64,000 nucleotides of DNA from assembly GCF_030384885.1 (NCBI RefSeq), contig NZ_CP128613.1, one strand, 5' to 3'. The position numbers and the translations under genes were made by a program. Within the stretch, counting starts at the first letter, position 1. Each line of letters begins with the position of its first letter. The notes beneath the pieces were generated by a model. It was not told where the DNA came from, did not search any database, and saw nothing but the letters and a program-made list of their open reading frames with translations. Positions 58,544-58,815 of this stretch are shown one piece after another. This DNA comes from Escherichia coli. GTDB lineage: Bacteria > Pseudomonadota > Gammaproteobacteria > Enterobacterales > Enterobacteriaceae.

Positions 58544-58815
58544 TGTTATCCCTCTGAAGTTCGTTTTTTACCATTTAGCCATAGTAAAAACATGAATTGT
58601 TTGATTTCGCGCATATTCGCTCATAATTCGAAAGTGAAACGTGATTTCATGCGTCATTTTGAACATTCTGTAAATCTTATTTAATAATGTGTGCGGCAAT
58701 TCACATTTAATTTCTGAATGTTTTCTTAACATCGCGGCAACTCAAGAAACGGCAGGTTCTCCCACTGAATCAGGCTGTTAATCATAAATAAGACCACGGG
58801 CCACGGAGGCTTTCA
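58544..58815. promoter_or_regulatory. Divergent glpACB / glpTQ control region
   Basis: 272-bp AT-rich spacer between the divergent operons; several GAACAT/ATGTTC-like half-sites; contains the CRP-like site listed separately. Confidence 0.6.
58689..58704. promoter_or_regulatory. CRP-binding-site-like palindrome TGTGC-GGCAAT-TCACA
   Basis: Close match to TGTGA-N6-TCACA in the glp divergent region. Confidence 0.6.

Follow-up and report, generated by a model that had tools for sequence, protein, structure and literature searches.

Transcription factor sites between the divergent glpTQ and glpACB operons of Escherichia coli

Results

Genes flanking the control region

The window analysed here is a 64-kb stretch of E. 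coli DNA, and all positions are counted from its first letter. According to the ORF coordinates, positions 58544-58815 are the exact 272-bp gap between two divergent genes. On the minus strand lies glpA (56915-58543), which encodes the 542-aa anaerobic glycerol-3-phosphate dehydrogenase subunit A, as assigned from the ORF and from the RefSeq annotation of the 100% identical NZ_CP027579.1. On the plus strand, glpT (58816-60174; ORF and RefSeq annotation) encodes the 452-aa glycerol-3-phosphate:phosphate antiporter and is followed by glpQ. A 672-bp query across the gap showed 100% identity to E. coli 2013C-4282, in which the annotated order is glpC-glpB-glpA diverging from glpT-glpQ. The same query matched 5419 of 5426 complete E. 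coli genomes.

Compared with the intergenic region of K-12 MG1655, the gap has equal length, no indels and 4 mismatches, so that 268 of 272 bases are the same. The differences (window/K-12) are 58668 C/T, 58714 C/A, 58762 C/T and 58812 T/A. All of them lie outside the core motifs; 58762 is inside the IHF footprint and outside the IHF core. The preliminary description had named this interval the glpACB/glpTQ divergent control region, and the ORFs, the RefSeq annotation and the K-12 identity all agree with that name. Both the gene arrangement, with glpBC and glpQ downstream, and the orthology to K-12 place it there. We are close to certain that the region is the characterised control region that the divergent E. 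coli operons glpTQ and glpACB have in common. It is already known biology, and nothing contradicts the identification. Few promoter regions in RegulonDB carry as many annotations as that of glpTQ, for which 21 sites of 5 factors are recorded (PMC4280137).

The RefSeq annotation of the identical genome shows two further features. An ISNCY-family transposase gene (319 aa, 53326-54285) flanks the glp cluster downstream of glpC, and a frameshifted hypothetical gene and LysR-type pseudogene fragments lie beyond glpQ (61475-62545).

A class II CRP site at the glpT promoter

The sequence TGTGCGGCAATTCACA (TGTGC-GGCAAT-TCACA) was found once in the window, at 58690-58705 with its centre at 58697.5, and agrees with TGTGA-N6-TCACA at 9/10 core positions. 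The preliminary description had called this near-consensus CRP site correctly and had placed it at 58689-58704, which is one base low. The complete CRP-cAMP site, AATGTGTGCGGCAATTCACATT (58686-58707), is identical to a footprinted 22-mer. Kurabayashi et al. (2017) reported a 25-bp CRP-cAMP DNase I footprint that includes AATGTGTGCGGCAATTCACATT in the EHEC glpT promoter. They placed this 22-mer at about -30 to -52 of glpT, where it overlaps the -35 box TCACAT, and showed that crp and cyaA mutants lose glpT expression (PMC5352689).

The glpT start was back-calculated from the coordinates in PMC5352689, whose own numbering disagrees by 1-2 nt. The start derived from this literature is about 58737-58739, consistent with the IHF footprint coordinates as relayed in PMC3050690. 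At about -41.5 from this start, the CRP site is a class II activator site. The probable -10 hexamer of glpT is TAACAT (58727-58732, plus strand), conserved as TAnnAT. If glpT starts at 58739 and glpA at 58607, the two starts are 132 bp apart, and the CRP centre is at -41.5 for glpT and -90.5 for glpA. These two distances agree with what we take to be the curated map of the region.

A generic sigma-70 scan gave TTGAAC/AATAAT (58659-58688, plus strand) as its sole match, which fits neither mapped promoter. Such a scan is expected to miss the mapped promoters, since they are activator-dependent.

A second conserved element, AAACGTGATTTCATGCGTCATT, lies at 58637-58658 with its centre at 58647.5. 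It is CRP/FNR-like, matches the CRP consensus at 12/22 positions and contains AACGTGATTTC, which is strongly conserved in the alignment of 28 sequences described below. Its centre is at -40.5 from the glpA start P1 (58607) and at -91.5 from the glpT start, which is the mirror image of the CRP site. We take this element to be possibly a second CRP site of the curated map. Several sites in the region have been reported to be recognised by CRP (PMC4790336).

Conservation of the CRP site

One genome per species was scanned for a degenerate GlpT-coding pattern, and loci with a divergent glpA upstream were kept. This yielded 46 Enterobacterales sequences, including the window and K-12, and 28 sequences from Enterobacteriaceae were aligned by MAFFT. 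The two CRP half-sites have an identity to the window of 0.93 and 0.91 in this alignment, compared with 0.60 in the 6-base spacer and 0.48-0.59 in the linkers flanking the site.

A TGTGN-N6-TCACA core of at least 9/10 is the best intergenic match in 41 of the 46 Enterobacterales sequences. In Escherichia, Citrobacter, Enterobacter, Klebsiella, Lelliottia, Trabulsiella, Pluralibacter and Cedecea, the best core lies 97-120 bp before the glpT ATG. The left half-site is TGTGC in all of these eight genera except Cedecea (TGTGG), while the spacers include GGCAAT, GGTAAT, GTTGAT, GATGTT, TGCGTT, TGTAAT, GACATT and others. Proteus, Budvicia aquatica and Moellerella carry the full consensus TGTGA-N6-TCACA in longer intergenic regions. 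No indel separates the CRP site from the TAnnAT hexamer in 27 of the 28 aligned sequences, the exception being Superficieibacter with a 7-column gap. The core match and the literature position are those of a class II CRP promoter, and constraint is seen on the half-sites and the spacing without constraint on the spacer. Within E. coli, a common second allele keeps both half-sites and departs from the window in its spacer (GGTAAT) and in the 58668-58678 linker.

Outside Escherichia, Enterobacteriaceae share a block, TGTCATAwwTCTGTAACA, directly upstream of the CRP site (loci L013, L055, L068, L092, L093 and others). In E. coli and E. albertii this block is replaced by a diverged sequence, TGTAAATCTTATTTAATA (58668-58687), and polymorphism within E. 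coli is highest in this stretch. Its E. coli version has GTAAA-N5-TTTAA and, judged by its letters, might be called loosely CpxR-box-like. CpxR has been reported as a glpT repressor (PMC10269713).

Two records in the set carry questionable labels. In NZ_JAATUR010000019.1, labelled E. coli SCPM-O-B-8794, the glpT-proximal half of the intergenic region (4545-4700) resembles E. albertii and reaches about 82% identity at best to 5426 complete E. coli genomes; its GlpT and its GlpA are each 100% identical to those of the window over the first 150 residues. As no match above 84% exists among the complete E. coli genomes, it was rejected as a second E. coli allele. The record probably belongs to a wrongly labelled sister lineage or carries a recombinant allele. 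The other record, CACSKA010000001.1, is labelled Chryseobacterium sp. 18061 and holds a glpA-glpT locus typical of Enterobacteriaceae, in which the CRP, FNR and TGGCTAAAT motifs are the same. It is likely mislabelled or contaminated.

GlpR operators at the glpA promoter

GlpR is a DeoR-family repressor that is released by glycerol 3-phosphate. The preliminary description had seen several GAACAT/ATGTTC half-sites consistent with GlpR operators. GlpR operators are supported here, but not by the hexamers, whose number was overstated: the intergenic region has one exact GAACAT (58661-58666) and no exact ATGTTC, and the near-matches are not above chance. Hexamers with one mismatch numbered 7 against 3.8 expected. 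Matches to a 10-mer GlpR half-site were likewise 10 against 9.8 expected. Three of the seven near-match hexamers (58557, 58613 and 58661) lie inside mapped operators, and another, TAACAT at 58727, is the likely glpT -10 hexamer already mentioned. For the hexamers outside the mapped operators (58588, 58718 and 58754), chance is the best reading.

The operators were located by a register fit against the 20-bp consensus WATGTTCGWTAWCGAACATW (WATGTTCGWT-AWCGAACATW, an imperfect palindrome), which reportedly goes back to Zhao et al. in 1994. Four repressor sites have been given at -41/-60, -9/-28, +12/-8 and +52/+33 of glpACB (Larson 1992, as quoted in PMC3050690). This four-site template was slid along the sequence, and each 20-mer was scored. 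A single optimum was obtained, with the glpA start at 58607 and a summed score of 52, against 43 at the next best position. Dinucleotide shuffles gave a mean of 38.4 (sd 1.9) and a maximum of 46, and 0/1000 reached 52. Across the 64-kb window, only one 261-bp tile reached this score, namely the control region. The comparison with published footprints, which had been proposed as a check, turned out well for both proteins: positions agree for the CRP 22-mer in PMC5352689 and, in one register only, for the GlpR coordinates quoted in PMC3050690.

With the coordinates as quoted there, the fit finds four operators at the published spacing, with scores of 13, 10, 15 and 14. The first, CATGCGTCATTTTGAACATT (58648-58667, -60 to -41 of glpA), scores 13/20 and holds the only exact GAACAT. 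The second (58616-58635, -28 to -9) is the weakest, with 10/20 and a conservation of 0.77. The third, ATTGTTTGATTTCGCGCATA (58596-58615, -8 to +12), scores 15/20, overlaps the FNR motif and has a conservation of 0.90. The fourth, GAAGTTCGTTTTTTACCATT (58556-58575, +33 to +52), scores 14/20 with a conservation of 0.76. The three operators at 13-15/20 are in the top ~0.1% of 20-mers of the window; the remaining one stands at 10/20. These operators are degenerate 20-bp sites that can be recognised by spacing and conservation and not by hexamer counts, and counting hexamer half-sites is an unreliable way to call them.

The published operator numbering implies a glpA start at 58607 on the minus strand, which we call P1. 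Its probable -10 hexamer is GAATAT (58618-58613, minus strand). Seen from the CRP site, the mapped operators are all towards the glpA promoter, and it is this promoter that they cover (58556-58667), not that of glpT. Since the operators are at the glpA promoter rather than at the glpT promoter, repression of glpT would act at a distance. The Larson papers reportedly have "interaction at a distance" and "action at a distance" in their titles, and the operator placement agrees with this.

Inside the genes, 20-mers at 13-14/20 to the GlpR consensus were also seen, in glpA (58150-58169 and 57028-57047) and in glpT (59045-59064). Going by sequence, these may be the distant internal operators that the "action at a distance" papers imply.

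FNR site, IHF site and glpT ribosome-binding region

The FNR motif TTGATTTCGCGCAT (TTGAT-TTCG-CGCAT) lies at 58601-58614 with its centre at 58607.5 and fits the FNR core at 7/10 positions. It is named in a 70-bp DNase I footprint of FNR(D154A), at -123 to -136 of glpT (PMC5352689). An FNR ChIP peak at glpT/glpA and FNR activation of both operons are listed, without positions, in the supplements of Myers 2013 (PMC3688515). Comparative genomics has found a conserved candidate FNR site in Enterobacteriaceae, Pasteurellaceae and Vibrionaceae (PMC1805755). In our alignment the 14-mer has a conservation of 0.91, and the half-site region TTGTTTGAT (58597-58605) is nearly invariant. The orthologous site reaches 9/10 (TTGnTCnTTATCAA) in Proteus, Providencia, Moellerella, Budvicia, Dickeya, Pectobacterium and Cedecea. 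The FNR centre coincides with the glpA start P1 implied by the operator numbering, and a centre on +1 is an odd place for an activator.

On the glpT side, the IHF footprint covers +15 to +51 of glpT, which is 58753-58789 (coordinates of Yang 1997 as quoted in PMC3050690). It contains an IHF core match, AATCAGGCTGTTA (58768-58780), at 8/9 to WATCAANNNNTTR, and this core is conserved within Escherichia only. The ribosome-binding region of glpT, GGCCACGGAGGC (58799-58810, plus strand), includes GGAGG at 58805-58809 and is conserved at 0.98 in the 28 Enterobacteriaceae.

The most conserved non-coding blocks are not at the CRP site. They are CATTTAGCCA at 0.99, the nearly invariant TTGTTTGAT and GGCCACGGAGGC at 0.98. 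The conservation of GGCCACGGAGGC extends well beyond the GGAGG Shine-Dalgarno sequence, and in the window GGCCACGGAGGC contributes to both a CCACGG direct repeat and a small hairpin (58794-58806). From its sequence it is a possible translational or sRNA target element.

An Rfam scan of 58300-59100 found no known RNA element; two sub-threshold matches to unrelated sRNA families scored 17.6 and 16.1 bits, against gathering thresholds of 40 and 49.5. A full-text literature search for the FNR motif string gave no match.

A candidate second glpA promoter

The block CATTTAGCCA (58572-58581), which reads TGGCTAAATG on the glpA strand, is the most conserved of the region in the 28 Enterobacteriaceae. 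It encloses the invariant TGGCTAAAT (58573-58581, minus strand), a candidate extended -10 element (TG-n-CTAAAT) that starts 19 nt beyond the FNR 14-mer. Taking CTAAAT as the -10 hexamer would put the FNR centre at exactly -41.5 from a start near 58566, which we call P2. In K-12 coordinates, P1 corresponds to ~2,352,583 and P2 to ~2,352,624. The arrangement of FNR 14-mer, 19 nt and TGn-hexamer recurs in all sampled Enterobacteriaceae and in Budvicia, Pectobacterium, Dickeya and Proteus, with different bases in between; in Providencia and Moellerella the spacing is 17 nt. On that assignment of the -10 hexamer, a class II FNR geometry (TTGAT-N4-ATCAA at -41.5) is present and conserved across Enterobacterales, with a 7/10 site in E. 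coli and 9/10 sites in distant genera. A 4-codon upstream ORF (ATGGCTAAATGGTAA) in the glpA leader was considered as the cause of the invariant block. It was rejected, as neither its length nor its start codon is conserved and Citrobacter has GTGGCTAAATGA.

Alternative readings

The motifs could in principle be chance matches: a CRP-like palindrome and GAACAT-like hexamers in an AT-rich intergenic region, with no regulatory role. Simple counts lean that way. CRP cores with at most one mismatch are at chance level in the whole 64-kb window (3 observed vs 2.14 expected), and the hexamer half-site counts of the intergenic region are not significant (P=0.22 for exact hexamers, P=0.07 with one mismatch). 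Yet such a CRP core appears in merely 59 of 5000 shuffles (1.2%) of 272 composition-matched bases, the half-sites are kept across genera while the spacer varies, and no shuffle equals the GlpR register fit. The CRP site has moreover been footprinted on identical sequence (PMC5352689). For the CRP site, this published footprint and the conservation pattern refute the chance reading, and for the region as a whole we regard it as hardly credible.

The role of the FNR site is a closer question, and the answer would add to the main explanation. PMC5352689 proposes that FNR serves glpT from about -130. The site may instead serve mainly glpA, through a class II promoter at P2; operators 58596-58615 and 58556-58575 would then compete with FNR and occlude the P2 core. 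The conservation of CATTTAGCCA, the FNR centre at -41.5 and the recurrence of this arrangement in distant genera speak for P2, as does the position of FNR relative to P1, since an activator centred on the P1 start makes no mechanistic sense. glpABC is also known to be FNR-activated, with the candidate site conserved in three families (PMC1805755). Set against this, the sole glpA start that can be derived from the literature, by way of the numbering quoted in PMC3050690, is 58607. The conserved block could be a protein-binding site or a leader-RNA element instead, and some distant genera have poor hexamers (ATCTTA in Proteus, CCCACT in Dickeya). In older papers the FNR box may already stand near -40 of a mapped start, in which case the derived P1 would be a second or aerobic start. 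We find the two sides evenly balanced on whether FNR works mainly at glpA through P2. The separate proposal that TGGCTAAAT marks an FNR class II promoter of glpA so far un- or under-recognised, with a start near 58566 and about 41 bp downstream of the operator-map start, is in our judgement unlikely.

Discussion

We favour the reading of 58544-58815 as the known control region of both operons, which probably works as follows. glpT is transcribed rightwards from a weak cAMP-CRP-dependent promoter. CRP, centred at 58697.5 and about -41.5, overlaps the -35 position and activates glpT in the class II manner. GlpR would occupy the four degenerate 20-bp operators between 58556 and 58667 and so blanket the glpA promoter and the FNR site. 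It would repress glpT from that distance, aided by IHF bending at 58753-58789 and presumably by looping. Anaerobic activation would come from FNR at 58601-58614, and which promoter FNR serves is something we infer. Binding of CRP and FNR is shown by the experiments of others on identical sequence (PMC5352689). The operator positions and both transcription starts are derived in this analysis rather than measured, and the operator and IHF coordinates are second-hand, as quoted in PMC3050690.

The region is useful for calibration. Without any tools, a reading of the raw letters placed a textbook region, and its CRP site within one base, and the region is usable as a valid positive control. Its practical relevance lies in fosfomycin uptake, which is set by glpT expression. 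P2, if true, would explain the operator at +33 to +52, the operator that overlaps FNR and the top conservation of CATTTAGCCA. It would be a modest refinement and may be in the older literature. An anaerobic glpA start at such a conserved FNR class II promoter, downstream of the mapped start, is the one point that could add knowledge.

The closest known system is the glpTQ-glpACB region of K-12 (Larson, Cantwell and van Loo-Bhattacharya 1992, J Biol Chem 267:6114; Yang, Gerhardt and Larson 1997, Mol Microbiol 24:511), which is the same locus with the same 272 bp. The window and K-12 have the CRP, FNR, GlpR and IHF motifs at the same positions and with the same sequences. In the EHEC glpT promoter (PMC5352689), the CRP 22-mer AATGTGTGCGGCAATTCACATT and the FNR motif TTGAT-TTCG-CGCAT are both found verbatim as in the window. 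That paper treats glpT alone, without mention of the divergent glpA, and reads the FNR site as a distal activator site of glpT.

The operator arrays of glpD and glpFKX consist of tandem degenerate 20-bp GlpR operators in a 20-bp register that match WATGTTCGWTAWCGAACATW, and the same is seen in the glpA/glpT region. Unlike in glpD and glpFKX, the operators here are at the neighbouring glpA promoter and not at the repressed glpT promoter. Among class II CRP promoters, galP1 and melR have CRP at -41.5, and their CRP sites overlap the -35 position as in glpT. glpT also resembles this class in having no good -35 hexamer at the proper spacing and in its absolute dependence on crp and cyaA. In contrast to galP1 and melR, the CRP site of glpT is also at about -90.5 from a divergent start, that of glpA, and one CRP dimer may serve the two promoters.
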